From an uncultured Christensenellaceae bacterium (GTDB taxonomy: Bacteria; Bacillota; Clostridia; Christensenellales; CAG-1252): DNA of 64,000 nucleotides. The notes beneath the pieces were generated by a model, which saw nothing but the letters and a program-made list of their open reading frames with translations, was not told the DNA's origin and did no database searches. The translations under genes and the position numbers were made by a program. The stretch covers positions 30,701 through 94,700 of the forward strand of contig CAYMNK010000005.1 of assembly GCA_964391805.1 (NCBI GenBank). The letters are read 5' to 3'. Shown here piece by piece: positions 3,405 to 53,883 of the stretch; position 1 is the stretch's first letter, and each line of letters starts with the position of its first letter.

Positions 3405-6400
3405 CTAAAGCGCAGTGTCGGGGTTGTCGGTATCGTCATCGATAGGAAGAAGCTCGGTTTCGTCGTCGTTATCGGCGGTTTCTTCCGCTCTTTCCTCTTC
3501 GAGCATATTGGCGAAGATTATCTCACGCCATGCCGAATTGGTGATACGCCTACTACGATAAAGCTTATTCGCTCCTACGCTTATCAGTACGATGATTGCA
3601 ATTATCGCTAATGCACCAAGTACGAATACATAGGGCTTTTCTTTGAGATATATCATGAACTTATCCGCTTTGGTATATATCACTTCGACATCGTCAGTCA
3701 AGGTGCTACTCGAATCGATTTCAACTTTTGTACCATCTTGTTCGACATATATCGTCACAAATGCCGGCTCCACCCACGAACCTACAGTATTATACTTCAA
3801 GATTAATCTGTAAGTCAATTCCTCATTAATCGAATAATCGCCTTCTAATTCATATTCGAATGCGGAATTTTCGGACATGTAATGTTTTGCGCCAATTTCT
3901 AATCCTTCTATAACATTATTGAATACATAATGTTCGAGAGCATCGCCATAATCGTCGGTAACCTCTACGATAGCATTCAGTTTTAGTTTGCCGGTTGCGT
4001 ACACGTATTCTATATGTATATTCTTGATGGTATATGCCACGCTGTATACGCTAAAGAATGCCGTCGACGATACTTGTATATTCTGGTTGGTACTGCGTAA
4101 ATACAGGTTGTCGCTGTTACCCGATTGTATGGAATCGCCATTCGCGTACGACGAAAGCGACTTATAGGTAATAGCGAGATTGGATATCAACCATTCACTT
4201 CTTTCCTTATCGGTCGAGTTTTCCGTTATCTCTTCGTCATATTTCGCTCTTAAATATTCGGGTAATTCTCCGTTTAATGTGAAGTGAAGCGTTGCCGATA
4301 TATCACCGTAATACAATACTCCGTTATACGAAACGAAGGTACCGTCTTCTTTATAGTAACCTAAATCGGTGCTCAACGAAACATTGACGGGGCTTATTAC
4401 ATATTTACCATCGATAATATTTCCTATCGTATAGTTATCGAGAAGATATTCCTTATCCGAATTACCCTTCTTTACCGATAATACGCATCCGTACGGTCTA
4501 AATAAATAGGTTCCGGCTTGTGCCTTAACGTCACCGCTGTAACCGGTGCAGGTCACCTCTAAATACTTGGAGTCATTGCCGACAAATCCGCTCACCTTGA
4601 AGTGATTACCCGATGAGCCGAATTTAATATCGTCATCGGTGTCGTACGATCTCGTCACATCTGTCGTTGTGATTGTAAGCTTACAAGGAACGACATAGAA
4701 GGATGAACGCTTGGTATCGAGTACAAACTCAATGCTGTTTTTCAACTCGTCGGATGCCGTTACCGAATACTCGCAGGTGTATTTACCGACGTTCAAGGTT
4801 TCTTTACCGAAGTATCCGACTTTCAGTTTGATGCCTAACCCTTCTAACGTGGTTACGTCTTTCTTGCCGAAAATGCTTGCCATTGTCGATATTACCGATG
4901 ATGCCACATTGGTAGAATACTTCATATTGCCTAATGAAGATGTATCTCCGTAATAATAGTCGCTACCGATATGAGATATGGTTATTACCCTCTTGGTTAT
5001 TTCGTAAGAGTAACCCGATTCGTTAGCGTAACCGATTTCGTAATATGAAGTGATATCTTTGCCGTCACGGTCGTGAACAGCAAAAATAATCGAATATGAA
5101 CCGACTAATTCGCCATCGGCTCTCGATACCGTAATACCGTCACCCGAGACAAGTTTGCTACCTACCGTGCGCACTGCGCTCGAAATATCCTTATCTGCCG
5201 AAGCAAATATCTTGGACGTTGTGCCTGTGTATTCTAAAACAATGTGCCGTTTCTCGACAGTCAATTTGCCGTCCGCATTCAACAAGTACACCTTTTCGTT
5301 GTTCTCGTTGTAGTCGGGCTCTTCTTCGCCTGTAGTCAGATATTCAAAATCTAAATTCGACTCAAAACGATATCTTATACCGTATACAGTGCCGTCGGGA
5401 TATAACTGTGCCGATTGAAGATAATTATCGGTATAGGCATATTCGTAACGGATGTCGAGTGTTAAATACTCTCCGACAAATTCGGCATAACTCATATCGA
5501 GGTCGAACCATTCGGCAAAGGCACTATATTCGCTTTCCGTTATGGTAAATAGTTCGCCGTTTGAATTTATTATAGTATATCCGAGGCTCTCGACGGTATT
5601 ACCGTATTCAATCCTCGTGTCCTCTATTTCGGCTTTCACCTTGGAGGGCAATATACGCAATCTCGCCGTGGAGGTTACAGAGTCGATATTATAGTTGGTC
5701 AAAGCGCCTCTTACGGGGGTGATGGCGTAACTACCGCTATGCTTGATATGATAAACATATCTGAGTTCACCGTTTTCTTCAACTATTTCGTCGCCGTCGA
5801 CTAACAATAGTTTTGCTTTGGTCAGCACATCGTCGTCGCCGTCTTTCAAGCCTTCAACCTTATAATACTTGGCAAATAAAGCATTGATATCAAAGTATCC
5901 GCCCGAATAACTAAATTGATCGAGATAGTCAATGGTTATGGTAGGTATATCTATGGTCAATTTCGCCTTTTCGATACCGAAAGTGTAAGGACTGTGCTTG
6001 ATCGCTTCGCCGTTCTCTACGGTGTATCTGTAAAGGATCTCGCCTTGAGGTAAAACGTAATCCACATTGAAGAAGTATCCGTATGAATTGGTGTCGAGAT
6101 AGGAATCCTCGGTTATCATCACATAATAGCCGTTACCCGCATTCGATACCGCTTGACCTGTGGCGGGATCTATGTAGATCAACTTGATATTGCTGAAATC
6201 AAGTGTCGATATTTTGTATTCGCTATTATCTTCGTCAATAAATCCGAATAAGGTCTTAGAATCGATTTGCGCATCGGGCGTGGTATCGTAACTCTTGTCT
6301 ACCATTGTAAGAGAAGTAAATACCAATTGTTTAGGACTTATGGTAAATGTGAAATTCGCCTCGCCTATCATCAATGAAGATTCTTCATTACCGATCGAGA

Positions 6401-9400
6401 AGGTCACTTCATATGAACCGGCATGCTTGGGTAACGCTATACCTAACGACACATCGGTCACAAGCGGTAAGGTAGACGCATCCGATTTAATCGTTCTAAA
6501 TACCTTAATTTCGGTAGATAGATGTGAGTTCAACTTGTCGAGTAAATTGAGTTGTTCTGCCGATACAGAGAGATACTCGTTAAGTTCGGTTGCGCTCTTG
6601 TCGCCGTAGATAATGTTTGTAAATCCTGCCGTTATCAACGAATAGTATGCTTTGATCCTTATAGAACCTTTCAATTTACTCATATCCGGAATTGTCAAAG
6701 TTCTCAAGTTGGAAGCCATATCGTATACGATAACGCCGTCACCGTCTTCGTACGAGAATCCCAAGAACATATATCCGTCGGTCAAGCCTGCCGTTATTAC
6801 AAGTTCGGATGTCTCGACAGGGAAGTATGCTCCGCCCTCGATTATGTCGGGTCTAATACCTTCTAACAATTGTCCGCTTAAAGGATCATATACGTCGACA
6901 TATACCGTATAACTGTATTGATACTCGGCAACAACGTCGGTAACGGCATTTCCGTTAAGGGTAAACAAGCCGTCCGAAAGCGTTAGGATGTAATTCTTAT
7001 TATTTTCTATATCGCCTTCGACAAAACCGTCGGAAGCGAACCAATGATAGAGTTTATATTCTTCTTGGTCGTTAGTGTTAAATACAAAATGATCATTAAA
7101 TGAATTGACGGTGATGTGACCGTTTAATCCGTCTTTATTGACAACCTTGATTAAGCCGGCATTGGTGGATATATCGCCTACATAGCTTATTACCCAGCAG
7201 TTTTCGACATTGCAGTTTAACACCGACAATACCGATGTGTAGACTTCTACAGCAAGATTGATTACCTTACCGTCGCCATCGGTGGAAACCACTCCGTCAT
7301 ATTCGGAACCCGTAACGGAAACATCGATTAGCAAACTGTTAAAGTTACCATTGATTGTTCCTTTAAAACCATGCAAACCCTTGAGAGAATCGGCATGCGT
7401 AAGGTGTAAATCATTCACAATTACTATTTCGATACCCGAAAGATCGGAACCGACCTCTACACTCGAGTTAACTAAGGCATTCCAAGCATCTTCACTATCA
7501 ATCATTCTATTGACATTGAAAGCAAGTACGGTGAGTTTTTCTGCTGTTTCGCCATCTTTTGTTATTCCGTGAACGAAGGTGGCTTCGTTACTTACACCTT
7601 TATCGTAGACATATCCTAATAATGCGATTTCGTCGCTTTCCGCAAATCCAAAGGTTATCGTATGTTCGGTAGCATCGATACGTGTCACTACTTCGCCTAA
7701 GGTGTAGCCGAATACATTGGACAAAGCCCCCTGCTCACTCAAAACGAAGGAATTGTAATCGGCAATTTCGGTTGACTTAACTATCCATGCATTATTGAGC
7801 GTTCCGCTCATTAAGGCTTTTCCCGCACCGACAAGTTCGATTACGCTATTGGTCAAATTACCGTTTTCGTTGATGCTTACACTTCCGCTTCCATAATAAA
7901 CGACCTTCAAATCGCTGACCGTACCTACAAGAGAGGTAAATAAAGTTATGTCTGCATCAGATTGTATATTGATCGTTTTTCCGTTACCATAGAATGTTCC
8001 CTTTAATCCGTCCACGCCGTCAAACGCGCCGTCAACGGTGATGTCGTCGGTTAGATATACATTCCCCGAGAACTGCCCTACGGATACGGCAATCGAATAT
8101 GCTTTAAGTTGTTTAAGGGTGGATATCTCATTAATGGCGGTTATCGAATAACGCTTGATTTCGCTTCCGTTCGATGAAACCATATTGTAGTTATCATTCA
8201 AAACAACTGCACCCGATTCGTCACGCCACAACAAGAAGTTGTCGCTATTATTGATTCCTACTGTCAACCTTATTTCACCGCTCATACGGTCAAGATATGT
8301 ACTTACCGAAATGTTAGAGAAAACAGATAAGGCATTTACATTTTCGCTCGAAACCGACGGTGCTATGATCCAAACGTTTTGTGCCGATAAATCTCCGCTT
8401 ACCGAAAGTTTTGCGTTATCGGCGTGAGTGGTAACGGTCATATTTGCAACAACAGCGCTTTTGATAACTCCGACGAAAAGATATGCAGAACTGCCGATAT
8501 CGATTACGACGTTGCGTAATTCACCGCCAAAACGCTTAAATAAAGCGTTAGTTGCAGTCATTGTAAAGCCTTGTCCGTCAATTGTACCCTTGAAGGAATA
8601 TAAATCATTACCAATAACAATTTTCGACGGAATATTTACGATGTCGTCAATTAGTTTAAAGGTTTGTTCCGACATTTCGAAACCTCTATTGACTGCGTTC
8701 GCCAATTTTTCAAGGTCGTCTGTATTTGCAATAGAATTGCTTATTACGCTTATCGAATATACTTTTGCTCCGCTAAGCTCAACCGTCAATGATGTGTTGC
8801 CTATGTAATCGAGGTTCAAGTCGTCAATCGATCCAATATACCATCCGCTAAAGACTTCGTCGTTGTCAATAATTGCGGTTGCGGTATAAACGCCTTCGAT
8901 TTCCTTGATTTCGGGGAATATAGCGCAGTCGGCTATAATCAAACCGATGCCGTCATTTAATTCGGGCGTTACAATCGACAATTCTTTATCGGTTACGGCA
9001 TAAACGCCTTGAGCCTTCCAACTTACAGAGTCGTTCGGCGATAATTTCATATTAGAGGTCGCAAATAGTACGCTTACGTTCGTTAACGAACCTAAGTAAC
9101 TATTCTCTAATAGATACATTTCGACATCCGAATCAGCCCAAGCGGTAACGTCTATGACTAAATCTCCAAATAACGCATCGGCACTCGAGTTTTCACCTCT
9201 AAGCACATATCCCTTGTTATCTACAGCCGATGTTGTACCTGTAATAGTTAAGGTGTTTCCGTTACCTAAGAAGGTTCCGCGGAATTTGTTTAACGATAAG
9301 AGTTCGTCTGCAAAAACTGTCAAATCATTGGTCATTATATAAGTTTTTCCGACAGAGAATGTGCTGTAGCCTATGTCCAAAACGCCTGTCAAAGCAAGTA

Positions 9401-12400
9401 AATCACCGCGCGAGGCTATATGATCGCTTATAAATTCTGCGGTAAAGCTGTTTTTGCCCGAATATAGAGGATCTGCCGTTGAGAAAGGACTATCACTCAA
9501 TATTGCAATATTTCCGTCGTCGTTTTCACCGGTAAAGCCTACGAATATGGTATTTTCGTCAATCGGTTCGGGCACAAATGTCAAGACGCTCGAATTGTGG
9601 TCGATTACAAGACTACCGTTACCGTTGATCACTATTGACGAGTACTTATTACTATTATTCGATCCGCTAACGGTGTTTTCGTCGATCGACGCTCTCGAAA
9701 TCAGCCATGCGTTTTCATTATAGGACGAACCCGAAGCAATAACATTCGATAACGTCATGCCTTGTTCGGTATATACCGCAGAATCGCTGATATATCCGCT
9801 ATTATGTACACAAATACCTGCAGAATTATCTCCGCTTAACGAGTATTGATAGGTTACAGCTAAGTTCTTAATAGTGCCCGAACTGTAACCGAATAATGAT
9901 TGTAATTCGCTACCGTAGGTCGTGCCTTTTGTAAATGTGATATTATAATAGTTGCCGTTAAACTGTGCACCGAATTCGTGCGAAGATGTACCGATTGCGG
10001 TAAATTCGCCCGTAATAGAGATATCGTTCGCTAAGGTGAATTCTCCGTCAATGGGTTGAATTCCGTATGATAAAGCGGAAGATAATGCCTTAAGTTCACT
10101 TCCGTCGGCAAATTCCCTTCTAATAGTTGCAATAAGATGCATTCCGCTAACTATACCCGATGGAGATAAAACAAGGGAGTTTTCCGAATACAAGAGGTAT
10201 CCGCTATCAAACAGTAATACACTCTTATAATCGGTATCGGCATCGGCAAATAACGTGATGCCACGCTCGGTATCGAATATTGCATCGAATACGATGTGTC
10301 CGTTGTTAACGATGTCGCCTATGTCACGATACGTAACGCTTACGCTCTCTCCTATATTCACATAGGTCATACAGTTTACAGCATCGATGCGTGAATTGTA
10401 TTTATTATCCCCGTTATATACCCAAACATTAGATATATACGACGTTCCCGATTTATTCCTACCTATAGCACTGTCCGAAACAACGGTGTCCGGTGAAATA
10501 TCAAGGAGAGTGTCGGTTATCGTCGTTCCGTTGGTTCCTACAAGTCCGCCAGATATTTGTTCGATACCGCTTGCGGCACTAATAGATGAATTATTGATTT
10601 TAACATAGTTGGATGCAATGGTACCCATATTGGACCCCGTGAATCCGCCCGAATATGCGGTAACGCTACTTGTCGAGGATATTACAGCTCCCGATATGTA
10701 TAACTCGATATTAGAGATATAGTAACTATTGGTTCCGACAATACCACCCGCATACGAAGCACCCAAACTATTTTCACGTCCTGCCTCTATCCTTCCGTCA
10801 ATATTTGCCTTAATCCTCTTAATGGTTCCAAGGTTACTTCCAACTACTCCGCCGGCATAAGCATTAACAGAAGGATCGTATTCACCTTCCCGAGAAGCGC
10901 TGAGTGTACCCGATAAAAGAATTTCACAGTCGGCTATCTCGCCCGAACGAGTATTTTCACCGACCACTCCGCCTACTCTCGAGGCATTTAGTGTCGCGGT
11001 AGACACTATTTTTACGGTACAATTATATATGCTTCCACTATTGAGTGCGACTATACCGCCAAAAGAGGATGTTTCACCGTTACCGAAAGAACCATTTGAG
11101 TATTCGATGTTAAGATTCTTTATTACCGCAGACGATGACGCATATCCGAATAATCCCATGTAAGATTGCGCCTTGATTGCATCGTTACCGATAATCGTAA
11201 TGGTATGTCCGAGCCCGTCGAAGACGTGTTTAAATCCGTACAATCCGTTATCGGTATACTTACCGATAGAGGAAATCAAGGGATCGTTTTCGCTTATTGT
11301 CAAATCATTGGTCAAAGTAAATACGAGTGATTTGGCGAAAAGACCGTTATTAACTGTGTTAGCCATAACGTTAAGTTCGTCGACACTCGAAATGATTAAA
11401 TTAATAAAGACTACGCTTACCGTTCTACCGGTAATATTATTTAAAGGCTTAAAGGTGTTATCGTCAACGTTACCTATAGAGTCGGTAACAGCTATTCCGT
11501 TTCCTTCGTACCAACCGTCGATTTCGGCTACTTTGCCACCTTCCGAACCGCTCTTTTCGGTTATGTTGATGAAAATCACGTTACCGTCTCCGTCAATATA
11601 TGAGTCAATAATACCGTTACCGCTGACCTCGAGCACGTTTACCGCCTGATAACCGTTACCGATAGCGGTTGCAGTCGTGGGTACGTCGACAACTAACCAA
11701 CTGTTGTTGGCACTACCTTGAATGCTACCTACAAAGTAACCTATATCGGCACCTTCTACGCCCGAAATCGTGCCTTTGGCTATACATACGCTGTCGATAA
11801 GCGTCGCATTGCTTCTACCGACAACGCCTCCTATCGATTGGTTTTTAGAATTGGCAACGATGCTTGAACCTTGATAGGTTCTAACGGTCAAGGATGCTAC
11901 GTATGCTCTATCTTGAGATATACCTATCGCACCGCCACCGTAACCCGACGAACCTTCGCCACCGTCCAAGACCTCGATGGTACCTAAAAGACTGACACTT
12001 GCAAGTTCGCTAAGTCCGCATAACGCTTCACCGCGCAATTCGCTCCATACCGTGAATTGACTGTTATCGCCACCCGATGAACCTAACACATAGCCGTTAT
12101 TCACACCAACGATACCGCCTACGGTCAAACCTACCAATTGAGTATTAGCATTGATAATTACGAGGCTGTTTTCTATTCTGCCGTTCTCGTAATTGTAGGC
12201 AGAAATACCGCCTACCACATTACCTTTTATGGTAACCGAAGCATTCTCGTTAAAGCTTACCGATACTCCGCTGATTGTACCCGAATTATATACGGCAATC
12301 ACGCCGATGTCTCCGGCAGAAAGCCTTATGTCGTTCATTAGTACAACCGATAAATTCTCAATTACGCCTTCATTATATCCGAATAATGGCACGTTGGCCG

Positions 12401-22280: not shown

Positions 22281-22380
22281 AGTCTTCTCCTAAATAGATT
22301 ACTCTATTCTTTTTGCCATTAGCCTTCCTAATGGTCTCGGACTCGTTCGCCCTATATATTTAAAATATATAATTAGATAT

Positions 22381-49400: not shown

Positions 49401-52400
49401 TTGCTCCCGCAATACCTAAGTCAAGGGCTATTCCGCCCTCTGTGGTAATGCCCAACGATACGGCATCAAAATATTTATCGATGTCGATACCCGATAAATC
49501 TACGCCGAATTGTTCGAGAATAGACATCAACATTGCTCCCGTTAAAGTAACCGCAATACCGTCTTGATTAAACTTGAGCGCAACGAGTTTATCATAAGGA
49601 GTCGACTCGCTTGCACTACTCGTCGATGCCTCACGCGTCATCGAATCGGCTATAAGCGAATAAATATCCAAACCGCGATACTTAACTTCTCCTATACCGA
49701 ATAAGGGAGCGGTCGCATACACGGTATCGCTAATTCCGTTATAGAATACAGAAAGTGCTACATCGCCTCTAACCGAATTTTCGTCTAAGGTGTAGACTTT
49801 CAGTAATAATTGCATATCTTTGAGCAATTCCATAGTTTTATCGCTATCCGAAAAATCAAGATAGGATAAATCTAAATTGGCGAATATATCATATGCAAGT
49901 GCTATATGTAAATCGCCCTCGGTAACCGCCATACCAAAGGTAAGTTCGGGTAATACATCCTTGATAAGGTTTTCGATGGTAGAACCTTGGGTTCCGCTTG
50001 CGAATTTATCGATGTCGAGCCCTATCGTACCCGATAAGGCAAATGACATCTCTTGCAAATTATCAAAATCCAATATATCATAAGATAGAACGTCTTCGGG
50101 GATAAGTGCCTCATTCTTGATGAAGGCAAGCGCAATATTTTGCAATCCTAACGTAACATAACTCAGCCCTTCCGTCGTGTCGGGATCGGAATTGTTATCT
50201 TTAATAAATAACGTCAAGCCTAATCCTAAACCGTCTTTAATACTCAAATCGATACTCGGAATAATGCCGTCAAGCGCTACTCCTGTATAGAAATCGTCAA
50301 TATCGAGTACGGCTACGCCAACAATGTTCAAAATACGCTTTAGAGTATTAGATGCAAGCGTTATTGCTAAGCCTTTATTTCCAACGGATACGGAATTTAG
50401 AATGCCGAGGTTCTGAAGTATCAAATCTGTCACACTTACATCACCGTTTTCGGTAGCTAAAGAGGTAGTTCCGTTACAACTGCATTCGCATGTGTCGGGA
50501 CAACCGACAGCATCGCCTACTAAGCAGGCTCCTCTCGAAATACACGCATCGCAATCGCATCCGCATACCAAAGATCCGACTTTAATTTTAAAACTGTCGA
50601 TATCATAGCCAGATACTTCACTTCCGTTAACCTTACCGTGTGTGGCATCGACGTAAAGATAGATGCCGTCAAAGTAAAGTGTCAATAGCGTTTCGCCCTC
50701 GTTTATCAACTCTATCTTAGCATCCATTCCGCTCATGATTTTGGCGAAATCGGTTCCGTTCGATAGCGAAATATTCGCCGATAATTTGATTAGAATATCG
50801 CCTTTAACATTACTGCCGTTCAAGCCGTCAATGCTTATATTCAAGAATAAATCATTGAGTAGAGTCGCATATTCGCCTAAATCGAAATGGTCGGCTATGG
50901 TCAAAAAATCGCTTACATCGTATGTATTACTCTTAAGATCGTAACGGACGTACAGTTCGGTAGATAATGAAATATCCTCGATTGCCGTAATGTCCTTGTA
51001 CTCCGCATAGTTAATTTTCGGAAAATCGGTATATTTGGCATCGATATTAATATCATAAATATTAACACCTAACTTAAGGTTACCTTGATGAGAATCGGTG
51101 GTGGCTAAGAATAAATCAAGCCCAATTTCCAATCCGTTCTCGGTGGAAATATGTAGATTGCTTTCGGAATCGAGTTCTATCATATCACGAATATCGGCGC
51201 CCATAACTACCGACAAGATAGCATCCAATACATCGCTTGATAGATATATTGCAAGTTGTTCGTTAATAGCAACTTTATTGACGATGCTACCTATCAAATT
51301 AAGTATTTGTGCTGTATCGAGGTCGGATGCCTCAGCAGTATTCTCAAAGGTCAATAGAGCATCGGAAGCCATTGCGCTTGCCGACTTGTTTAACGACTTA
51401 TTGATCATCGATACAAGATCGAGATCGTATTTGATTTTAGGCGCATCGAGTCCTTCGATACCCAAATTATCGAGGTTAATAAAGATTGCGGAAGCATTAT
51501 CGGCGTAATCGTCATAATAAACACTCAAAAGTTCGCTTCCGTCGTTTTTAGCAACGATCTTTAAGGCAAGTTCGAGTTCGCTGATACTAACCGATAATTC
51601 TTCACCTTTAATCAAATCTGCTAAAGAGAAGCCCTCAAAACCTACGTTTCCTGTAAGAAGTAAGGTAATACCGCCTTTAATTCTATTCTCGAACTTGAGT
51701 ACGCATGCCAATTCCGCCAAGTAATCGCGGAGAGACCCGATAGCATCGTTTATGTCGATACTGACACCACCGTCACTATAATCGATGTCGCCCGAATCAA
51801 AATCAATGTCTATACTCAAATTCAACGACATTTCATTCATTTCGTTGAGATCGATAAGGTCGTCTGTAATCTCAACATCTATAAATTTAGGTTCGAATCC
51901 TAAGCCTACAAGAGGAAGTTCAAGCGAAACTACGGTATCTTCTGCAAGATAAATATCAATATCGCACGAAATACCGAAAACGTCGGGCTCGGTGATAAGA
52001 CCTAATTCCAAGTCAATTGATCGAAAAGCTATAGAATCGTCCGAATATGCCTTATCGCTCATAGCATCGGCTATCGCCTTAACTACGGCGCCGTCATCAC
52101 CCATAAAGCCTGCAACTGTTTCAAGAATATTGATAAGAGAAGTTCTGTCAAGAGTCAACGATAAACTTTGAGTTTCACCGTCAAGTTCAAGAGCACGCAA
52201 TACCTCGACCACAAGGGGAATAATATTATTTTTTATCAAGCCCAAAACATCGGTTTCACCCGCAAAAGCAAGATTGAAGGAATTACTCATGAAGTAATTA
52301 CGAATGGCTTGTTCGCGGTTTTCTCCACCGTATAAACGAATAAGTGCCGATTCGACCTCGCTTGCAGATGCGGACGACGAAAGCATCGCCGTCAAAGATT

Positions 52401-53826
52401 CGCCGAGTAATGGTACTAATAATTCATTCAAATCAAAGTTATACTTAAAACTCGGTAAGCCTAATGCCGATAAATCAATCAGCATTTCTTCGTTTCTTCC
52501 GTCGTAGGTCAACTTAATCCAAGCATCTGCGCCCGCACCGCCTAATACCATAACAACTTTGTTGTTAGAATTATCGGCAAGATCGAGAACCGCTTGAGCT
52601 CTAAGGTCTATACCGACTTCGCCTACGCCCAATTCAATCGCAGTGTTACCGAGATTACCTATACTGTCAACTTTAAGAAGTGATGCTATCAACGTACCCG
52701 CCAAGTCACCTACGGTAACGCTTTTGGCACTTCCGTTGGATATTTTAATCGTAGTATCTATATCGAGATTGGTAATAGAAAATTCTCTATAACTCGAAAA
52801 ATCAGGAAGGTTGAAATCGATACCTTGTAAATCGCTACCGATATATTTGGCACCTATGCCGAGTCCAAAGGCAAAAATATCCTCGCCGTACGAAATGTCG
52901 GTATCGACAGACTGAAATAATCCGTCTTTGGTTTTAATATCAAAGCCAAAGCCTATAGTTTCAAAGGAGTAAGAACAAATATCGGAGAAGGTCATTCCGC
53001 ACAATTCTAATAATACACTGTCGATATCGCCAACAACGCTCGTAACGATACTCCACAAGCCCTTGATTTTAGATAACAATCCGCTGATAAACGTATTGAT
53101 GTCGAAGTCGACGGAGAATGTCTTATATTCGACAGATACACCATTTTCGTTGGTAATATCGGTCACTATACGTGCATCACTGATAAGGTCCTTAAGAAGT
53201 TCGATGACGATAGCACCGACATCGATTTGAATTCCGATATCGACTTTGAGATCTTCGAGTTTGTCGCCCAAGTCACCGATAGAGCCTAACGAATCTTTTA
53301 GCGAATCTACAGCGGACATCAACTGAGCAAGACTTAACTCGCTGATATAGAAGGTTGCGCCTTTACCGTCGGCAATGTTGAAATAGAAAACCGAGTTTTC
53401 ATAATAAGCGCCGAAAAGCAAGGATTCGTCTTTTCTCCTAAACTCAAATGACAGAGTGGAGGCGGAATTTTTCGCCTCTTCAGTTTCACCTTTCAAATAA
53501 TAACGAAGTTTGAGTTCGAAATGATAATCTAACGACTTATCTCCGTTAGTAATATTCAATTCGTTACTTCTAAGGTCTACAACGAGATAATCCTCGTCGG
53601 AACTGTACCCCGAGTCAACAAGAAAATCTACCGCATCACCTAAAACTTTGAAGAAATTGGTAGTATCAAGAACGTCGACCTTACTTTCCGTCTTGTCTGT
53701 AATTTCGCCCGGTGAGGGAGGAACTATAGTTCCCGACTCCTGACAGGCGGTTAGAGTTAAGCATGCGACAATAACAAATACTATTGCCACAAGCATAACT
53801 GTAAACAAAAAGCGTTGTTTTTTCAT
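22462..53826 (-). CDS. Giant surface lipoprotein 2 (about 10,454 aa): lipobox, about 19-20 novel modules, Cys-rich CGC mini-domains, C-terminal Ig-like repeat array
   Basis: Uninterrupted 31,386-nt ORF (22462-53847). GGAGG sits 7 nt upstream of the second ATG (53826), so I place the start there. The N-terminus MKKQRFLFTVMLVAIVFVIVAC LTLTAC gives a lipoprotein signal. The internal repeat architecture is described under findings. The protein ends ...NEGYIVLKF with no TM segment or LPXTG motif. Confidence 0.95.
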   Translation of the reverse strand: MKKQRFLFTVMLVAIVFVIVACLTLTACQESGTIVPPSPGEITDKTESKVDVLDTTNFFKVLGDAVDFLVDSGYSSDEDYLVVDLRSNELNITNGDKSLDYHFELKLRYYLKGETEEAKNSASTLSFEFRRKDESLLFGAYYENSVFYFNIADGKGATFYISELSLAQLMSAVDSLKDSLGSIGDLGDKLEDLKVDIGIQIDVGAIVIELLKDLISDARIVTDITNENGVSVEYKTFSVDFDINTFISGLLSKIKGLWSIVTSVVGDIDSVLLELCGMTFSDICSYSFETIGFGFDIKTKDGLFQSVDTDISYGEDIFAFGLGIGAKYIGSDLQGIDFNLPDFSSYREFSITNLDIDTTIKISNGSAKSVTVGDLAGTLIASLLKVDSIGNLGNTAIELGVGEVGIDLRAQAVLDLADNSNNKVVMVLGGAGADAWIKLTYDGRNEEMLIDLSALGLPSFKYNFDLNELLVPLLGESLTAMLSSSASASEVESALIRLYGGENREQAIRNYFMSNSFNLAFAGETDVLGLIKNNIIPLVVEVLRALELDGETQSLSLTLDRTSLINILETVAGFMGDDGAVVKAIADAMSDKAYSDDSIAFRSIDLELGLITEPDVFGISCDIDIYLAEDTVVSLELPLVGLGFEPKFIDVEITDDLIDLNEMNEMSLNLSIDIDFDSGDIDYSDGGVSIDINDAIGSLRDYLAELACVLKFENRIKGGITLLLTGNVGFEGFSLADLIKGEELSVSISELELALKIVAKNDGSELLSVYYDDYADNASAIFINLDNLGIEGLDAPKIKYDLDLVSMINKSLNKSASAMASDALLTFENTAEASDLDTAQILNLIGSIVNKVAINEQLAIYLSSDVLDAILSVVMGADIRDMIELDSESNLHISTENGLEIGLDLFLATTDSHQGNLKLGVNIYDINIDAKYTDFPKINYAEYKDITAIEDISLSTELYVRYDLKSNTYDVSDFLTIADHFDLGEYATLLNDLFLNISIDGLNGSNVKGDILIKLSANISLSNGTDFAKIMSGMDAKIELINEGETLLTLYFDGIYLYVDATHGKVNGSEVSGYDIDSFKIKVGSLVCGCDCDACISRGACLVGDAVGCPDTCECSCNGTTSLATENGDVSVTDLILQNLGILNSVSVGNKGLAITLASNTLKRILNIVGVAVLDIDDFYTGVALDGIIPSIDLSIKDGLGLGLTLFIKDNNSDPDTTEGLSYVTLGLQNIALAFIKNEALIPEDVLSYDILDFDNLQEMSFALSGTIGLDIDKFASGTQGSTIENLIKDVLPELTFGMAVTEGDLHIALAYDIFANLDLSYLDFSDSDKTMELLKDMQLLLKVYTLDENSVRGDVALSVFYNGISDTVYATAPLFGIGEVKYRGLDIYSLIADSMTREASTSSASESTPYDKLVALKFNQDGIAVTLTGAMLMSILEQFGVDLSGIDIDKYFDAVSLGITTEGGIALDLGIAGASVKLSIGGLLAKTAYSDIEKIAFAEVSESEYVAISDETGALSMKEIYFALSIGFDINGTVDSSDGNGVNLSPVVSQILENVEVEDTIKTLFSQLAIYFDYDIDTRFVLNIELFANIYDLSEIALDITLSDGNGIVLDVFYDSNTDRIYVSLPSMAVKDFYVEIPYIREQIQGNIGDSIIKALSFLSGAKVSEASDSNDVYDIINGIIDSVEINGADGYLKVISTSNLLGVLTSLLSIEVLQNVVLPDVNANVSLGISAESGINVGIGVGILDGNDKVFALDLGLNGLAVAFSRPEKFVADESKYISWDTLNVGINSNVELSLVLDKEYADIVNKVISDNIPGSSLNIEVNSSTGKVHLDIGIELALNIRFNSLEDIGIELWLSLYASTNGVMDYAENNRLLSLYYDSLDRYSVENKPIEAIYLELGSGSGNAIRVDDLGIADYISDLIGDMLKPSTVMASEPMDNIIQAEIDNGILIEVTGGAIGVILDALEVGGVWSDINALFEGASVYINADRTGVAIALGGESVLSVELNDYGIFFPNDGETLESRPEYGSKIADLKNSAILLKDLEQTYFAFSMTVKAGKGDTFVDGELTAKEIASYNDLLRVLLTSDSNGEIYYGVDAEIAIAGLDLSELKLAMIGDSELLAQAVQKIINGMTLEVMLVVRDKNNTANYADGEPVIGIYYESNINDVIYVNIPSINLKIAVRDAFDLSELLMSIIKSNDSKSAVQEATDYISIIKLFDTLKLSPEGAVLSLSSQILSRVCVMAGIELTLPEIVSMVSIGVLNDLSMETAYGSTTVGTDIENGLGVHIELADNADFFLDVALGDLSLQFRQDLEVIYPSQGSGDYDKLTFFGQLGEYVSADAMHGHASFDAIIDFSIGATNDPNDTNAFDFSAILQEFVDTTFSIDIADMLKGKYVLSVDAAFNLAEGAETLYGLTFFIELFDYDNGETVLSLYYTRSGNSGILGIELTFLGLEPFMVDVDLGTLIGGVFDINNLSFAEDGDTYGKDDSMLGLLDTLKGSISVLLLDDDFKISVTGEILQAVLSFFGYDKYLPALIKGVTLKNNDYTDKLADGDYLATVDGIRYGNDFSVSSGVNSKKYTLSLKSEKIAKIELDGKELSDIEDYFHIDGQKLSVNKASASVKALSVGVHRFVVYYQDGGSTESAFEIVNTSFSFEKQNDYVEYVLNIGYKSIDRIAIYRSSALIAELTTTRAINEYFVIDRNRNTIAFNVSSNVVKALSVGAYNINVLYSDGNETSFVMTKSVTKVSIDAIELDGLDITSITLSGASNKVLVEDNTSTEWYGNYFAFNTEGGKLSLGYVDDRIEASVKVNDTTDLTISIGNLKLDASKYEVTSPKTYKENVEFLTVKTAIEFNAQAKEDVFIAITDLIGETLDKYIPSGTLPFDISELPIGLWLEDDVDAHYLLDLQINLRFDQYSNTPIDLGGSEIVIQIYKLSTISANEVMVEDLKLALSYIGSEGENGALYINIPYFDLLLKIDEAPWRTVINDAIGGSMTLSPETSRASEEDITFENILSLFTGLRITEDNVQIDFAEDLLSLICKLVGLDIDFSKLNCDRSYIKINNFIHGIEDTTVFKKESENDTVRSNLLEARLELLMNDGNKNALAKIIEGANALEVDESCSILKNEIIDKLIAFDPDRNSNDEFKVIASIVKSDEFICIDNAQKAQVIAMLDAFEVKDEYLDLIVYEPEVSFDQDLIYETPLGQYTTITEAKALYMSLSGSIGLSSDGSKINIGNLLQSNGGNSSFDNILNEIQGADTEIVFGEGEQKLDFNFEVNVGMGSDKLSQLVDGGSIQEVIFALVDDLYIYFELKQTTSSGSVAVAELYYQNSYIYLDLSNLGLPQVAMKLEVEELLKLIFGSSEVSLASESGLDYSSAFEILVHSKELVLRGSVAFIDLLLEKLGYSLLDADVELDMSFTLDNESDELIDIGITAIDNSSNKTVLSVELGKPIIKLGGFVSKLVTDATSYAFIEDIEYLSASLSLEIGYHLNSTSTDGVSDYVLTDIFSEVLGLSEVPFEVESSLTNRIILDLNLNLNIVDVNATELYLHMYSLDDDYLTVYYDGNGYLYLSAPVLDSSLNIRVDFEIKNIFDSLGITEVIEGIDIAELIYGLFKKDTNTLSSAGEIDDLTTSQIILLMISKLGIDSDGALSVFFNKHILSALGLEILNSEALIEELKEVSVSVDLFKRNISANVTLNSKTDGAEDPYLDLVMRDYNIRGTRQDISFDGSKYTTSDDYKHLYISSTGALDYSIPDGTYDFGGVIQSLIKNVSIPFELEGMQGTLYYTLDAKIGIVDYLDSELALEVYYKDAVYDIGSLLLSVYFDMDKGEAYIDLPWFEVPKIALTGIDASSLVQSLFGGLSLASDEPEWYGIVRLISNLVDRIVISDGEHTLPEGLNIVLNDELLGNLLDYFISKYKIELPFSLVDSDKALSYVGVSITNKQIVADIELENTLDGAVNKYGYLRIKAGIDAIKPSDKSIRPTRTQDVTSYVTLLDFQAPEMLVLETLYFEGSIDIDIDMLKSNINLEKVVQYLLNDKLTLNIVENIDMVISIDINANINLKNIGYSEILLSVLVKERIGEYNDGTPKYNEALLARAYLVGMDNSLYLDAPMIGLYDIKLDVDLSSLIDSISTVENYLESVSVSDGLDCGCKDSACIANGSCYDREGKKLCADGCECLDCKLPCGCTDSYCLEYAHISGDYENACGVMGIYCHDGEDCSCSCHNPLECGCINPGCVEAGSCIIGWKYVYQNKRNSDGTYVIIDGIIQQELTKVPVTRCGDDEDNCINNQNPCLCHKSVLECGCINPEHIDDYNCPLDKDECIFIKCTVHDTAEECFAHSDECIFAYTTDTHCDLSCREHWTGLITDMFDVFRLSKTQLQLVTTTHVLSSLFELLTNEKLNYEDSPAAGLTFTVNYLDRDYRTDVQRKALVDLLRAVSVLEGEELDAIIDELEAFDIDLGKSSELDTLITRFKALTVTDGAEANYDIALTNFEAFRDKGGYYEEAFFENLDASLEMWFYGGWSAETGDYIGDKSTVSLKVGSFKLDTGKFDIPFYRIDESTRRETTELKNISDYQLFSEVSKISFSVAIELIGELGESKDGEGLTVDFSSIIDEIIPGFDSIFKILTEPYGGKMAFTLVIDGSLDLNNFNASQILLSIYEGSKDALNNRIAMIFYDGLDSEGCSIFLDIPAFNISKVKYVGIDLSSLFFKEKLDCGCENVLCNANGSCYSDNGSRICGDGCCDCKPFDCGCECDECVSSGVCDGKCLSSCECNHHSVSSAGEHELVCGCNNDECVSRGSCVIGCTDCGYIKAPSSDNNCHRPLWNKDNALKCGCYDPICTSRGCCYDLCAYCTDSSCVSKYNATNKFASDTTYTVLEVLRAIVSIDISQERGIQLAISPSITAELLNYFGVDIDLDALENAGALKAGFIISTRSGLGINIEGTTDNDEFLTDPGLTITLSDIGLKLNTKDVREYLDKDVKETLSSYKSLTIDDNIVLSASATITNNSYEGYWNVSTLFTNLFGTTADLGIDFDDSEYIVQMNFLANISIDSIFGNGLDNIDINRILSENEILLEFVNVTDSSRSQLLISLYLSDGWAYIDFGILRDTPSIKLDIVDLLGEKRVSSASDSESQIKYDPKTNNPELADKGRMYFYTEEKDNEAFHVALKGKSIESIVIENLNINKSGTVRERIVLDTPEKISSYFDIVNNGSDLTSIILLNNANAVALNESAQGCYYNIIVTTEGGSVTIPAKVGSRKLLGFDNGEKIASTVLSFISFIGASEDTLSLNIGGDILMIVEELLGIDYALPEIEGVRMDMSLINSLTAINESEYNSGTTYGVDKFGKSNVCSDLVFDIKVSGVVNKAVFTSRDGKAVTIGLDELSKHVLVRSNSVVLIYKTVSELPNGLWKFELFDGAESVLATGYFNVSAYISPALSLAIENFSLDLAFDNYSVVLLKNDFIDSEHRFSLLKYSLSTYYVNDDSFRPSKTYDSNYNIDSDAYIDVVNGLDELYLSADIDINIDVSNNNISNLDDKYNTNGSVMNLGEDLSGLLGAVLLNLGMSSSEINGDYKLILRVHLDSLDFTTFSYRNIKVYLKLQKKCYGFTVEGVSTGIDGDYVDMLMAYFNGDELFINANPALVKFATCTQVSISIDEVSNYWNDNVSGAGDNMPSTVYDNYALAGEDFSVAGVLSLFKDITIGRGTIGIEVADNFVNTLLKMFTDFDYDISLGNLGLTLDYINGAINIDLEKETVFAPSLAYDANGTPIYNNAVDYASIRIDKDAKTVSLTANALKNLSIGNWTIYVNYLDGSVDVFNAVIAKNRTVTYIYNSSKVTESELYEQLTVSNISSITMDIDKVTLCDSSNEKSYFAFEVDSLGAKVSKKVLFSLSKQKFLVKFGEDSAYLDLTNYEPILIYKGITESIRYIGDYFYITPSGVSVGELTDIEIISDSKAIKIAMNEEGYNKQAFGISLSICNICLDFKLPEQFGNSGLYDASEEYRYISESVFTMIKGLPLDEYLRWSDLEYMLGASMDITLDYDTANIDPFSYFEHIEGDSVDLSGLAEAIKSAILLTTKVDTQITIDFYLKLNISSPYMSEGKIEISLGGYYREVGSTLVPIDQPVVIYFDGAGQKDLSKLYIDMSILGIDPFYVEADIVSLVKNYISNNINGGSFDSSDNDNRVNIDKDKLDCGCRCETCLTNGKCTSYGEHTCLEDCACTCCKLSCGCTDTNCIANGSCYDKTGLRICDGTDCGCSCAKLSCGCNDEECVKAGTCLTLSDDGEYRVIVRCREKGDCTCSCCMLSCGCRDEKCLENGSCIDKNGVLLCSETCGCSDKTIVPDAKEESTLDKVLGMTKYLGNLVSGVSVGNQGLLIAFNKNVMNNLFAMLAINTVFSDDVDIYIEARGYDDFENSYLKLVIDDCKEENRYTTEVKFYNLELKGYDSAYSRDYLYNSDKLSDKWTIYRDSVFRGLTLKMDNGSGFIEMTDDNVAYIGEHTLIGVFGNNSDEPIVTLNANTYFAPDIRPNNNQEHENWIDVTALQIKFETTIYLQANGGVNDEDVEIDFTNLLANSLYLNSGINSELSDLFNVIFDTKASDTDFYDIRLRIDLGMALDISDSHNTEVKLEISKEYQEGGKIYDYLLLGLYYINQTETVYLTLPMMDIEGLCVKNVDLSGILSGLTGIEWGDKLATASDVDKPDFYGLIVDSFGLDLSSVQNVIDMLANSATVSETAQLAISLGNGRIGLAVNMALIKLIINAADLDSTVGTILNSITDLATFDRVEVYADFGDKVLREGENLLNKLSIGVGMYLDKNDSGLFGENMGTNNFDWLGVELAVTNLNVKIGDGKTVVDGKLINEIEKTSLNSIYDALSKPISTFLEFPHATISGVEYGNGRFDNLSAFDNLNGYVDLLNMEEFHIDLGGEIVLDLAKDAYGYTNPLVDMLTDLLESSGLFADGAVTLIKNASSTITLGFVIVADIDFSDWKQTEIKVEVTYSRDGSEAKQLLGLYYWGANSNSKDDTTNTSGSFYIDLSGLGLFKTKIEGISLTMLLKEMLGVDVTGGTLDIGGDLLYSLLGTRDVTVFINKLIEEMNEPKETSEAGDDSKRLSCGCTNSTCLANGTCRNANGELTDVEHNCAEVINNAKLTVTLASYLKDSAKGSALSVDFNGNMLNKMFKVFGVDFTLPEETVIGVDLRMANGFDLLKVELTSYDVDEKGNKLMNGGEAVGSTVSLELNKFKLGYDAQNGLLEGIVYDSSNKEYSDYSGINIGGLIGFENNYDGILIADIIANILDALNSDIDLTIRSNSDYVDASGVSIVSGQDRDTLFKITRIGASDSDNATYIHGLKLDATDMLPDLVNDILRGIYWYQDELILDINFTIPLINYNIERAINIPISIHDLINKSGITGSHDPRTNVSDNKVSKASDSSDGMIKGLSITFGDGDVGALGRPSDAITGAGISNVRIDFNGAYMAKLFEDLPALIVDGLGSLVGITDYDTDNLKQNETLYAIYDMFINYLYDSINITDNSTRKLINELIEGIAGDLVFELVARLLPLPTITESSECFAVIVFDDTLVNGQLSAISKILFSIQTVATGEYWEVEIAMNGLKLAGIDTSDKSNITINVDSTHYLDKRIVTDVFELDYDKNGIVDYMENLPETATINKFASGTVPEGTEDTPLGNLNVSWADSIFRIDPSKGDTSYYIEGYVLNYVEYVEVYVPQSSARKVKYDENLSVNIDGEYYPTPMITASGFDYPVVLEAYEVENFIKNLPSVIYVTMTDGNGENEFIKTFDGREGMGSDIVKWNADELSKSYLGGTYKLYLTFGDGIVGNYQVIIPVTVNANTLNGIIFPDENGGYANGTSSLIFNPYQEIVLPSQVYATFGNSLPELYNIKWSISASDITPVYTGYTYRVDAEIGNLDIGYYTYKNITITIKSYVMTDWKLMNSDGSLSDLELEFDPYHFTDGAIMPDALNVNMYPRYLYVKYEGNTDYIAQRVEWNLSGIDNNYKGGISQAQFRITSDDDAERSRIEKAGYQTTDVTVSIIDATVSNYVIDGLATTIDPMRMLYVLRDKDGEIVDYIDYQFTNIIISHTGTIFNTAIASDLEKLALYKPELAVYDVINGKIVDPTDAYDADCYPDEVSVVYKNGTVATFKAEYNALGIFDGEGGVIWNTDGISLDYNGGTYTALLKVGNSYGGYQTIEVPIEIVSRKIASINLSAVRDSYVFDPYVYTDYALNEALYPTNGFNLYELITAPENKLGNVIFESQSAGYYPIVWDLSAISLSYTGGEYSAKAKIGSDVAGYQSVDFKVVIQPKVIKSLLIDELVFDPYDLSVDPLDKATYPDKLTVRFTDDTNFEFSNVSWDITALNEIWNVYGGTKKVTAKIGNALGGYQLIEVPVTIENRFITEFQLNAGNFLTFDPYGIDQSASALDPRLTDSYPTQVSVIFGGFLSGTEDDIAGTVNVTWDINSIVNDYSGYKSKTVHSDGSVDYYKEYTVTAAVGNSRIGYQYYDVTVRVLNREIERLIPAEITVDPFSTEDLTSTVTILFKDGQEGSMAVEWTDKDYDIFVLGRDVDNSDASIHARIGNNIGGYQVFPVKVNVMDKSITALYNGNDIVAGMVDGKLSTSGFTYEIDGVVYTRDSSYFEIDPLEQTIELVTVTSYLSNSAIERIYVRDVVSDTLTAYFAQDGTTRSLSASWLFDSIINVDYNGKDFYSGNNNGTTGAILEVGTPKVGYITLEYRTIVLNRKVSTNVTIVNGEAVTTPAIYTNYIDSADNEPLKYIVDDVFGQSSYPNVLYFGFAESSVSNESVLSKVVSWTKNGDTASITLGNSAYGYQTFTFKVYKVSRDVVYDSYITPDNEAEYNQLVDSIANKVKNVSFTAVAHYVGNSILVETDRNALGNYVDEIYSLVLSMRMDRRTVGGEGNIIKALALLRASSALGTALDSVINEVESLKDMSISIIYVDPYDIDMPESLNVTIGRAKVRAWNAETGSYLWDSSINDYVYIDVTRDLCRCDKCVGTVCSDSCDCWCVSRSYTMNADWSKSDINYLYSTAGITQEVRNVVVGNEAIGYYTVKAYVEVEGRKIVAVEKDEFEIDPYDYNALPSNIEVLFEDEAGNRLAGTLDIMANIANAQKVTQAMIDDINSVVYGHSEYLNNNTAFYQGGYYVLTARVGSRLGGYQEVQMLLKVADRTIARVEGETDSEGNWIENITPYGGLNGSTDTPLGIVSVVYVTGEKGTLNALWSYANIDYNYLGCDRQSYVLIGNTQGGYQTIPVTVKVESRVVSSIVPLNDSGNEFVYNPFDFGGVVPSYVDVYFNGNTDNALRLSVDKTDGFKLTEEYAIGSKELKALIRIGNDRSGYQWTECAIKVDDRILGIDSIVLDGEEHNGTTYSAVSAYSNPLTIDSEGRILLNGTLLQVKAYIADENGVNNSGKAVWLYAKLLSDLEYDYRGLDNIVVAKIAIGNDTAGFVSQDAYGNQFTMSIKVESEIISKVEGIRQSGALVNTFDLYEKYFAESSYNPHEMVVMDNEGIMATLSSGKTLDAKYGLSIKDYAFVDEFGNVVDYKGNSNARIILYIGSDKGGYQPVYLKDGNEFRTVCVENREIDLDAITGEFKSKFDPYSDKLPDVISYNGFDYSVTYICDGKPFDGSAISYYGGVFDLVAKIGSVRGGYQEYRYTLNVSQKLIASVDGLSGVVIDQFGTNNLPEGLINVTFTDGTTAVFEVKIISEYMQRDYKLGVVASGNNLVFTDSIISAYGKNGLFSCGGWDLSNVELDLDGGIYYAVLYVGNSYGKYQPVSIPVEVTKKTLDHKNTVQYVVSREGDLVETEPLDNIYTGFGEYFVLPNDLWLTFSDGTSFNTTVEWNTLTWTDSNGEHTLTDWSINDLYRNVDGNKVYGDYTLYANVFGCVLSVKIFVVEDRIVMSDSFNDYYSVRRGSSSPLPNEMYQTIFDAKSNTTVSSRVFTVEWENVPSLSIEDSYTLTACMFGQGITWTKDITLHVYSSSIASVSAITDGSVHVIGQGNKITALDMPTVEVIVKYGKYSLSKQISANWLPLTKTVGDVVTDISTNEANSFEITATDVGAKYTFKAVIIASNGEELTLNGQSITVDFVVIDSEDISTKIVLDTNATDDEGNEYILTYYGDGGISPVKLLSDDVKIISSIFYSNADKTDIVSENELPKEVGRYYYEVTVTYKNIVTEYIKTLSCTYIVQKADISSKIVISDTSVIYNGEAQGIKAYVSGRIADIEILYLIDGEWTVNTPKAVGDYQAKVKVVSANYDGEISTRFSIVKAVHYYLYDEKGERYGDTYYSGIGRFLSLPSVDLSVEANEYVSYAWFYIDTDGVKHPFKASDRITEDMCNTTEYDYLELNLYLAVIRLKIVNEKTLSIDKIITLSGNEGGEIIDVFTLITIDIYNSETETKVGQITYSDNKTMVNGEFEIGKYLDEYRLVVTMQIGHSLGIMTNGNEGYIVLKF
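24440..30700 (-). repeat. About 18 tandem Ig-like (beta-sandwich) repeats with the 'K(I/V)GNxxGGYQxxxVxVxV' signature
   Basis: Examples are ALLKVGNSYGGYQTIEVPIEIVSRKI (about 29270), AKIGSDVAGYQSVDFKVVIQPKVI, AKIGNALGGYQLIEVPVTIENRFI, IGNTQGGYQTIPVTVKVESRVV and VGNSYGKYQPVSIPVEVTKKTL (about 24480). The period is about 90-120 aa. Each unit opens with an (F/V)DP(Y/F) motif and contains W(D/N)...Y.GG.Y. Confidence 0.65.
26788..26844 (-). other. Cys cluster 6 (CRCDKCVGTVCSDSCDCWC), a degenerate variant inside the Ig-like region
   Basis: 8 Cys in 19 aa, read directly from the minus-strand translation. Confidence 0.6.
32458..32541 (-). other. Cys cluster 5 (CGCTNSTCLANGTCRNANGELTDVEHNC)
   Basis: One CGC-x4-C-x3-G-x-C unit, read from the minus-strand translation. 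Confidence 0.7.
34859..35296 (-). other. Cys cluster 4: four tandem CGC mini-domains (34 Cys in 146 aa)
   Basis: LDCGCRCETCLTNGKC...CKLSCGCTDTNCIANGSC...AKLSCGCNDEECVKAGTC...MLSCGCRDEKCLENGSC...CSETCGCSD. The Cys count is mine. Confidence 0.8.
39274..39708 (-). other. Cys cluster 3: four CGC mini-domains (31 Cys in 145 aa)
   Basis: LDCGCENVLCNANGSC...FDCGCECDECVSSGVC...LVCGCNNDECVSRGSC...LKCGCYDPICTSRGCC...CAYCTDSSC. Confidence 0.8.
40774..41403 (-). other. Cys cluster 2: composite Cys/His-rich region (about 210 aa)
   Basis: LDCGCKDSACIANGSC...LPCGCTDSYC...CHDGEDCSCSCHNPLECGCINPGCVEAGSC, then a Cys-free insert of about 30 aa, then ...RCGDDEDNCINNQNPCLCHKSVLECGCINPEHIDDYNC...THCDLSC. Confidence 0.8.
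50476..50565 (-). other. Cys cluster 1 (CGCDCDACISRGACLVGDAVGCPDTCECSC)
   Basis: 10 Cys in 30 aa. It lies about 30 residues after the closing motif TLLTLYFDGIYLYVDAT (50641-50700). Confidence 0.75.
53743..53826 (-). other. Lipoprotein signal peptide of giant 2
   Basis: MKKQR + FLFTVMLVAIVFVIV + AC (lipobox IVAC), or the second lipobox LTAC six residues later. The mature protein would start at one of these Cys residues. Confidence 0.7.
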
Positions 53827-53883
53827 AAAATGACCTCCATCCGACATAAGCCCGATGAGGCCATGACGGATAATAATATATTT

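Follow-up and report, generated by a model that had tools for sequence, protein, structure and literature searches.

Two adjacent giant genes for predicted exported, membrane-tethered surface proteins in an uncultured Christensenellaceae bacterium

The window analyzed here, a 64,000-nt stretch of contig CAYMNK010000005.1 from an uncultured Christensenellaceae bacterium, is dominated by two giant open reading frames (ORFs) that lie head-to-tail on the minus strand. The upstream ORF (10,461 codons) is referred to as A and the downstream one (6,291 codons) as B; they are separated by a 181-nt spacer (22281–22461) and together occupy 50,262 of the 64,000 nt (79%). An earlier reading of the same DNA, made from the sequence alone, had pointed out this pair, and its coordinates were reproduced exactly. 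Our results indicate that A and B are, very probably, real giant surface proteins that are exported and tethered to the membrane. The coding sequences are as follows; residues of A are numbered on the mechanical ORF (Met1 at 53847) unless given as "from Met8".

22462–53826, minus strand: giant A coding sequence including the stop, 10,454 amino acids (aa) from Met8; the mechanical ORF starts at 53847 (10,461 aa).
3405–22280, minus strand: giant B coding sequence including the stop, 6,291 aa, with AGGAG 7 nt upstream.

At the base composition of the window, a stop is expected with a probability of 0.065 per codon, i.e., once in about 15 codons, and stop-free runs of this length have a chance of about 1e-305 for A and 1e-183 for B. 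The next-longest ORF within the A–B region has 175 aa (33236–33763, plus strand), which agrees with the earlier figure of about 175 codons for the longest spurious ORFs. The predicted masses of 1.147 MDa (A) and 0.675 MDa (B) sum to 1.82 MDa, close to the 1.8 MDa previously estimated, and both proteins are very acidic (isoelectric points of 4.2 and 4.4, respectively). A blastn self-comparison of the whole window gave a direct repeat of about 200 bp flanking the ORFs as its sole non-self match and no nucleotide repeats inside A or B; the internal protein repeats share 24–45% identity. Both agree with the sequence-only reading, in which the protein repeats were called strongly diverged and no long identical nucleotide repeats were seen by eye. 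No similarity between A and B was detectable, and an Rfam search of the window gave no match.

Several lines of evidence bear on whether the two frames are genuine genes. Contig CAZUET010000008.1 (L002), from an uncultured Christensenellaceae metagenome-assembled genome (MAG), begins 42 nt upstream of an A ortholog with 84% identity, whose frame is open over all 4,527 available codons. Over the first 999 codons, the comparison with A gave dS = 1.45 and dN = 0.098 (synonymous and nonsynonymous divergence), hence dN/dS = 0.068; judged by this codon comparison, A is under purifying selection. A search for the pair in related genomes, which the sequence-only reading had proposed, located it on a 38.6-kb ENA gut-type metagenome contig (L004). 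There, an A ortholog is collinear with A aa 2892–10460 at 35–39% identity, and a B ortholog, starting 94 nt downstream, is collinear with B aa 3–3336 at 36% identity up to the contig end. Because collinearity persists at 35–39% identity, the A-then-B pair and its order are conserved over a large evolutionary distance. The start region of B, TAGGAGAAGA-YT-ATG, is conserved in this contig as well.

In NCBI and Logan, a 175.5-kb contig carries the exact B sequence, and its 90% cluster comprises ten members of 6,289–6,295 aa on Logan contigs of about 31–51 kb. Relative synonymous codon usage correlates with that of the flanking housekeeping genes (r = 0.93 for A and 0.87 for B), and the GC content by codon position is alike. 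A more distant protein (P0001, locus L001) is related to the first 1,130 aa of A at 60% identity; its frame stops 31 nt short of the contig end, where the homology ends too. The spoIIID neighbor named in the sequence-only reading was found, and its divergent arrangement with A is retained at L001. Scans of metagenome contigs with the A C-terminus as protein and with a degenerate DNA pattern gave no match.

54142–54411, plus strand: spoIIID, divergent, upstream of A; the L001 counterpart (517–777, minus strand) is 59% identical.

These data leave little room for the view that the locus is a mis-assembly or a non-functional open frame, which we regard as hardly credible. In its favor, the source is probably a MAG and one relative carries an in-frame stop; against it stand the lack of collapsible repeats, the low dN/dS, the native codon usage, collinear A orthologs in two independent assemblies and the ten B entries. 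The earlier claim that both ORFs are complete genes rather than fused fragments is therefore well supported by the dN/dS, the open ortholog frame, the collinear pair and the B cluster.

The start of A and the putative control sites of both genes were then delimited as listed below.

53743–53826, minus strand: A signal peptide with lipobox (MKKQR n-region, 20-residue hydrophobic core, L-T-A-C; Cys28 from Met8).
53884–53912, minus strand: promoter-like TTGACT-17-TAAAAT upstream of A, a consensus match only.
22403–22454, minus strand: hairpin right after the A stop, 16 bp, no U tract (dG −23.8 kcal/mol, z −5.0).
22381–22409, minus strand: promoter-like TTGAAT-17-TATAAT in the A–B spacer, a consensus match only.

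A Shine-Dalgarno motif is present, as had been claimed, but the listed start codon does not hold. The GGAGG falls within the first seven codons of the listed ORF (codons 4–5), the arrangement GGAGG-N6/7-ATGAAAAAACAACG (ATG-AAA-AAA-CAA-CG) is conserved at L001 and L002, and L001 has no upstream in-frame ATG before the conserved start. For these reasons, the true start of A is most likely Met8 at 53826, giving 10,454 aa, and the ATG at 53847 is probably unused. The resulting N-terminus, MKKQRFLF...IVACLTLTAC/QESG, contains a lipobox, as previously noted, which is kept in relatives as L-T-A-C (P0001) and L-S-A-C (L002). The signal peptide is the only hydrophobic segment of A that clearly scores as transmembrane (TM)-like; one further stretch (aa 1709–1727) is barely over the threshold. 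The hairpin after A may serve as a terminator or attenuator or may stabilize the mRNA, and the promoter-like site in the spacer overlaps its 3' arm. Since B is preceded by both this hairpin and a promoter-like site, the arrangement suggests that transcription of B can be independent of A, each gene perhaps having its own promoter.

Most of A consists of tandem modules, here termed A-modules, followed by an immunoglobulin (Ig)-like C-terminal third:

32227–52875, minus strand: A-module array, at least 19 copies of about 260 aa (ORF aa 325–7207), delimited by iterated hidden Markov model searches.
40774–41397, minus strand: Cys-rich insert with CGCx4C motifs (A aa 4151–4358).
50476–50565, 39274–39702, 34864–35289 and 32458–32541, minus strand: similar Cys-rich inserts, of the same type as aa 4151–4358.
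24271–30465, minus strand: about 11 Ig-like repeats of about 130 aa (aa 7795–9859), each ending in ..G(G)YQ.h.h.h (G(G)YQ-h-x-h-x-h).
23011–23229, minus strand: MBG_3 domain match (aa ~10207–10279), marginal at 25.9 bits vs a cut-off of 25.

The module consensus reads ..L.L.Lggl.I.f...Y....IsLslsg.Ldl....dLgdlLg.Ll....L.L.AnLDL.Dl..leL.Lel....lLgIYY.dg.LYLDls.LglpKIkIeglDL.dLL.gll....a.a.A.e....I.L.sg.L.I.Lt.dlL..LL..L. Gaps in the array are filled by clade-specific inserts, and Cys-rich inserts interrupt several modules; in total, A has 151 Cys and 13 CGCx4C motifs. Over the 10,000 residues of A, Pfam returned nothing beyond the marginal MBG_3 match and one marginal Big_4 match in the Ig-like region (25 vs a cut-off of 22.1), and no Pfam family was matched consistently by 52 A-modules. 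NCBIfam gave no match for A or B, and neither the two module profiles nor three terminal regions had a match among PDB sequences. Outside the modules, i.e., in the N-terminal domain, the inserts and the C-terminal third, matches of A are confined to its own clade.

An AlphaFold2 model of the A-module, built from a 52-row alignment, reached a mean predicted local distance difference test score (pLDDT) of 73 and a predicted template modeling score of 0.59, with core residues 90–170 above 90. It is beta-rich and comprises three long strands (14–16 residues), nine shorter strands and five helices, together with a low-confidence, disordered loop that carries a semi-conserved A-x-A-x-A-x-E or S-x-A-S-[DE] motif. 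The motif occurs in every A-module (e.g., A aa 1407–1418; profile positions 171–177) and family-wide, about 60% conserved at its best position. A Foldseek search of the PDB with the model gave no significant match (best E 9e-3, template modeling score at most 0.24), and the same held for BFVD.

The model also bears on a different use of the chain. Instead of a stalk, the A-modules might form a hydrophobic groove of the AsmA/TamB/VPS13 type, or A might be a polyprotein cut at the A-x-A-x-A-x-E loops into units of about 260 aa. The unusually long strands combined with helices would suit a groove, the best, insignificant Foldseek matches are lipid-binding folds (LolA, Ups1, SPLUNC1, vitellogenin), and a low-confidence loop with an Ala/Ser-acid motif in every module could be a cleavage site. 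However, with E values of at least 0.009 and template modeling scores of at most 0.24 these are no real matches, none of the 52 modules matched AsmA or DUF490, no protease gene was seen at the locus, and the loop motif is conserved to only about 60% at best. We consider both versions improbable.

To place the A-module in public data, a 19-module profile was used in an exhaustive search of 1.84 billion representative proteins, which identified 117 proteins with the module, 47 of them below 1e-30; 611 instances were counted in 113 proteins. The representative library tops out at 7,924 aa and contains neither A nor its close relatives, and very long proteins may be missing from it. The members come from Logan, ENA and NCBI, under no other names than "hypothetical protein" and "Eubacteriales bacterium" or "Clostridia bacterium" MAGs. 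Many of them have 5.6–7.9 thousand aa and 13–16 modules, and their lengths are constant in up to 39 cluster entries. Most full-length members start with a lipoprotein-type signal: the strict lipobox pattern [LVI][ASTVI][GAS]C is present in 21 of the 48 best representatives, and most other full-length representatives have close variants, e.g., F-A-C or L-S-C. The earlier statement that most of A cannot be named holds for curated libraries; by these searches, the repeat unit nevertheless defines a rare, undescribed family that is unannotated in public data, and A is its longest member seen.

The giant lipoproteins of Clostridia and Eubacteriales MAGs (MDY5440424.1, 5,587 aa; P0003–P0023, 5.6–7.9 thousand aa) resemble A beyond the shared module of about 260 aa. 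Like A, they have an N-terminal lipoprotein signal and a region of about 300 aa ahead of the first module, and in some of them the C-terminal end has Ig-like or MBG regions. A differs in being longer (10,454 aa and at least 19 modules vs 13–16) and in having more Cys-rich inserts. On a contig with a distant family member (L005; 4814–7710 and 10001–30080), a 4,300-aa protein gene (P0032) is followed, after 22 nt, by a 2,384-aa MBG_2/MBG_3 gene, and the two may be a single giant gene now split. A sigma-70-family gene and a gene with an RsgI_M domain precede P0032, and no B-like gene lies nearby.

B is built on a different plan, with an array of GLUG-type modules and a C-terminal anchor:

22167–22280, minus strand: N-terminal signal sequence, a hydrophobic segment with a possible ASA/EG cleavage site.
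7101–22079, minus strand: about 17 GLUG-type modules of about 230 aa (B aa 68–5060).
3408–3632, minus strand: C-terminal TM helix (aa 6217–6239, nt 3564–3632) and tail, KLYRSRR followed by an acidic stretch (3408–3563).

The C-terminal TM helix with a charged tail is as the sequence-only reading had described it. Its AXA signal peptide is partly upheld: the hydrophobic N-terminal signal is there, and cleavage at ASA/EG is plausible, if unproven. The L004 ortholog (22571 onward) starts instead with a lipobox, LLSAC, and would be tethered at both ends if the C-terminal TM helix is also kept. Each B module consists of a beta-rich leader of about 80 aa and a GLUG-type part with the consensus I.s.edL..la..vN.G..f.g..F.L..DI.l...PIG...F.G.FdG.G.tI...GLFG...g.v.NL.v...GG. 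The presence of GLUG in the smaller giant, also claimed earlier, was confirmed by Pfam Glug (PF07581), which two 1,000-aa pieces matched at 21.9 and 25.7 bits (cut-off 20.5), and by hhalign of the B unit against canonical clostridial GLUG regions (98.9% probability, E 1e-17, 136 columns); on single modules, the Glug profile reached E < 1 in only 3 of 15. No match to B aa 5060–6216 was found in Pfam, PDB sequences or NCBIfam.

Canonical Clostridia GLUG surface proteins (Glug + Flg_new + Cu_amine_oxidN1; P0156–P0161) are homologous to the C-terminal ~140 residues of every B module, which correspond to their helix-cap and first GLUG rungs, with the common motif I.t.edL..la..vN.G...F.L..DI.l...PIG...F.G.FDG.G.tI...GLFG. 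Identity is low, and only 7–11% of a 1,200-aa query is covered. Whereas the canonical proteins have about 1,000 aa and two such regions, B has about 17, each after the extra beta segment of about 80 aa, and it is further set apart by its C-terminal TM anchor. No close relatives of B were found outside the clade. By these alignments, B adds a new and extreme member to the GLUG class.

The surroundings of the pair include the flanking repeat and several further genes:

3073–3262, strand not assigned: direct repeat of about 200 bp, downstream copy, bracketing the A–B pair.
54419–54613, strand not assigned: upstream copy, 80% identical to the downstream copy over 204 nt.
62201–64000, plus strand: third exported repeat protein, at least 599 aa, running off the window end, with a signal peptide ending in AFA/ED.
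2097–3017, minus strand: predicted lipoprotein of 306 aa downstream of B, no NCBIfam match.
1430–2107, minus strand: polytopic membrane protein of 225 aa downstream of B, no NCBIfam match, with an 11-nt overlap with the lipoprotein gene.

The flanking repeat contains a short dispersed intergenic motif, GTCATACTGAGCG, which is also found at 1382–1394 and 3381–3393. We considered a mobile island bounded by the 200-bp repeats and rejected it in view of the native codon usage and of the spoIIID–A arrangement conserved at 60% identity; the presence of the repeat motif at other intergenic spots is a further point against it. Logan contigs with B-cluster members recur at a size of about 51.25 kb. Because this equals the spacing of the flanking repeats, it suggests that short-read assemblies break at the repeats, the contigs then holding the whole pair. 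In the protein starting at 62201, a GYNFLGWT segment resembles the Listeria-Bacteroides repeat, and MBG-like repeats are present as well (direct repeats at 63240 and 63447, 207 nt apart). The protein of a ttcA-like neighbor gene is also present in the searched collection.

A and B were next compared with established classes of giant and surface proteins. In common with fibrillar adhesins, they have long tandem arrays (19 or more A-modules and about 11 Ig-like repeats in A, about 17 modules in B) and an anchor, i.e., the lipobox of A and the C-terminal TM helix of B, not the usual LPXTG. No LPxTG motif is present in A or B, which does not fit the sortase-anchored class. Tandem GGxGxD repeats of the RTX type are missing; the motif occurs once in A, as an isolated GGAGAD, and not in B, and both proteins have Sec-type signals. 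Pfam detected neither FIVAR/GA repeats of the Ebh type nor S-layer homology (SLH) or other wall-binding domains in A or B. The absence of HExxH motifs from both proteins and of any Pfam peptidase family speaks against the IgA1-protease/Zmp (M26) type.

The Ebh protein of Staphylococcus aureus, of about 1.1 MDa, combines a signal peptide with a long rod of FIVAR/GA helical repeats, a C-terminal TM anchor and a charged tail. From this general description, it is comparable with A in size and with B in topology; A, in contrast, is anchored by its N-terminus as a lipoprotein, and Pfam found FIVAR/GA repeats in neither A nor B. Proteins of more than 5,000 aa are described as uncommon outliers that are mostly eukaryotic (PMC11573180). 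Giant1–5 of Apilactobacillus kunkeei have 3,000–8,000 aa, with N-terminal beta-solenoids like those of serine-rich repeat proteins in Giant1–4 (PMC12863079). Like A and B, they come from consecutive genes of a Firmicute; they are extracellular and thousands of residues long, with a predicted long, extended shape and a presumed role in surface interactions (PMC12863079). Compared by that description, A differs in its new, apparently unrelated module and lipid anchor. Repeat proteins of 10,000–30,000 aa with adhesion-type domains have been predicted in mammalian gut Clostridia, and their RCC1 or other beta-propeller, dockerin, leucine-rich repeat and fibronectin-type domains were not detected in A or B (bioRxiv 10.1101/2023.11.21.568195). 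A literature search on Christensenellaceae, GLUG, giant proteins or fibrillar adhesins found nothing relevant. Giant, repetitive, anchored surface proteins of Firmicutes are already known; the module and family of A are undescribed.

Giant proteins elsewhere in bacteria have been tied to attack on other cells (bioRxiv 10.1101/2023.11.21.568195), and size, export and repeats would also suit contact-dependent antagonism or toxin delivery of the polymorphic-toxin, Rhs or contact-dependent inhibition type. Yet YD-like motifs, Rhs repeats, HExxH and toxin or immunity domains are all absent from A and B, no toxin families being found in Pfam or NCBIfam; moreover, the A C-terminus is a conserved beta-rich domain collinear with its ortholog, not a variable tip. 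Toxin delivery is accordingly a very remote prospect.

Taken together, the locus is probably best described as a native, conserved two-gene unit encoding two giant, very acidic, exported proteins that remain attached to the cytoplasmic membrane and extend from the cell as long fibers. A would be exported by Sec and is predicted to be lipidated by Lgt/Lsp on Cys28. Its N-terminus, with a Pro/Ser/Thr-rich tether (QESGTIVPPSPGEITDK), would then hold it at the membrane, and the Ig-like/MBG region would lie at the far end. B would be held by its C-terminus with the N-terminus distal, unless its signal stays uncleaved; because basic residues lie C-terminal of the TM helix, the positive-inside rule places the tail in the cytoplasm and the bulk outside. 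The module chains would then act as rigid stalks reaching through and past the wall. In the gut, such fibers might serve in attachment to mucus, particles or other cells, or in surface architecture; whether they are adhesive fibers specifically is, in our judgment, evenly balanced. The neighborhood is that of surface proteins, as the third exported repeat protein starts at 62201 and the B-matched proteins carry Glug, Flg_new and Cu_amine_oxidN1.

The same topology could also belong to a structural envelope component instead of an adhesin, i.e., a permanent layer, sheath or spacer such as an S-layer-like or wall-spanning scaffold. Both proteins are membrane-anchored, their extreme acidity might allow binding of cations or wall polymers, no domain was found that would clearly be an adhesive tip, and the spoIIID-adjacent arrangement is conserved in a relative at 60% identity. 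On the other hand, Pfam shows no SLH or other wall-binding domain, the A-module has a rare and patchy distribution (117 of 1.84 billion representative proteins), and B lacks close relatives outside the clade. Because of this rarity and clade restriction, accessory surface proteins fit better than a core part of the envelope, and we rate the structural role as rather unlikely.

Several observations weigh against the proposed pair of surface fibers. The fold of the A-module has no recognizable relative, its role as a stalk is argued from tandem repetition and beta content only, and modeling of two modules in a row gave a poor result (pLDDT 54), leaving the inter-module packing unreadable. The candidates for ligand binding, Big_4 and MBG_3, are both barely over their cut-offs, and none is confident. 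The B partner is missing in the one distant family member examined (L005), and A and B therefore need not work together. Finally, the L004 ortholog of A has one in-frame TGA, and another family member is split into 4,300 and 2,384 aa, which means that A is not intact everywhere. The stop codon and the split concern one ortholog and one distant member, respectively; the L002 frame is open throughout its 4,527 codons. The TGA (L004 9998–10000, about A aa 6264) falls exactly at the expected last Cys of a CGC-x4-C motif (CGCSEED*). Selenocysteine was considered at this position and rejected, given no structure resembling a selenocysteine insertion sequence (z −0.26) and no Rfam match; a TGY-to-TGA mutation or a sequencing error appears more likely.

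A broader and more speculative picture, which we rate as rather unlikely, would join these elements. The A-module would be a new fold, of which about 20 copies chained behind a lipid anchor would make A one of the longest lipoproteins known. A and the oppositely anchored B would be the two components of a dedicated surface organelle, with fibers of roughly 100 nm (a rough guess) that are fixed to the membrane by the ends of both protein types, and the organelle would be specific to an uncultured, Christensenellaceae-related gut clade. Processing, cross-linking or metal binding would take place at the conserved, exposed A-x-A-x-A-x-E loops and at the CGCx4C knots.

In this lineage, whose closest labeled relative is Christensenellaceae, about 50 kb of the bacterial chromosome are devoted to two giants and kept intact under purifying selection. 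A exposes a domain family that lies outside every curated library and solved structure, yet recurs in lipoproteins of 5–10 thousand aa in gut Clostridia MAGs, which makes the A-module a concrete target for structure determination and a new Pfam entry. If they are surface fibers, A and B would be prime candidates for the attachment of this uncultured gut lineage to mucus, particles or partner cells.

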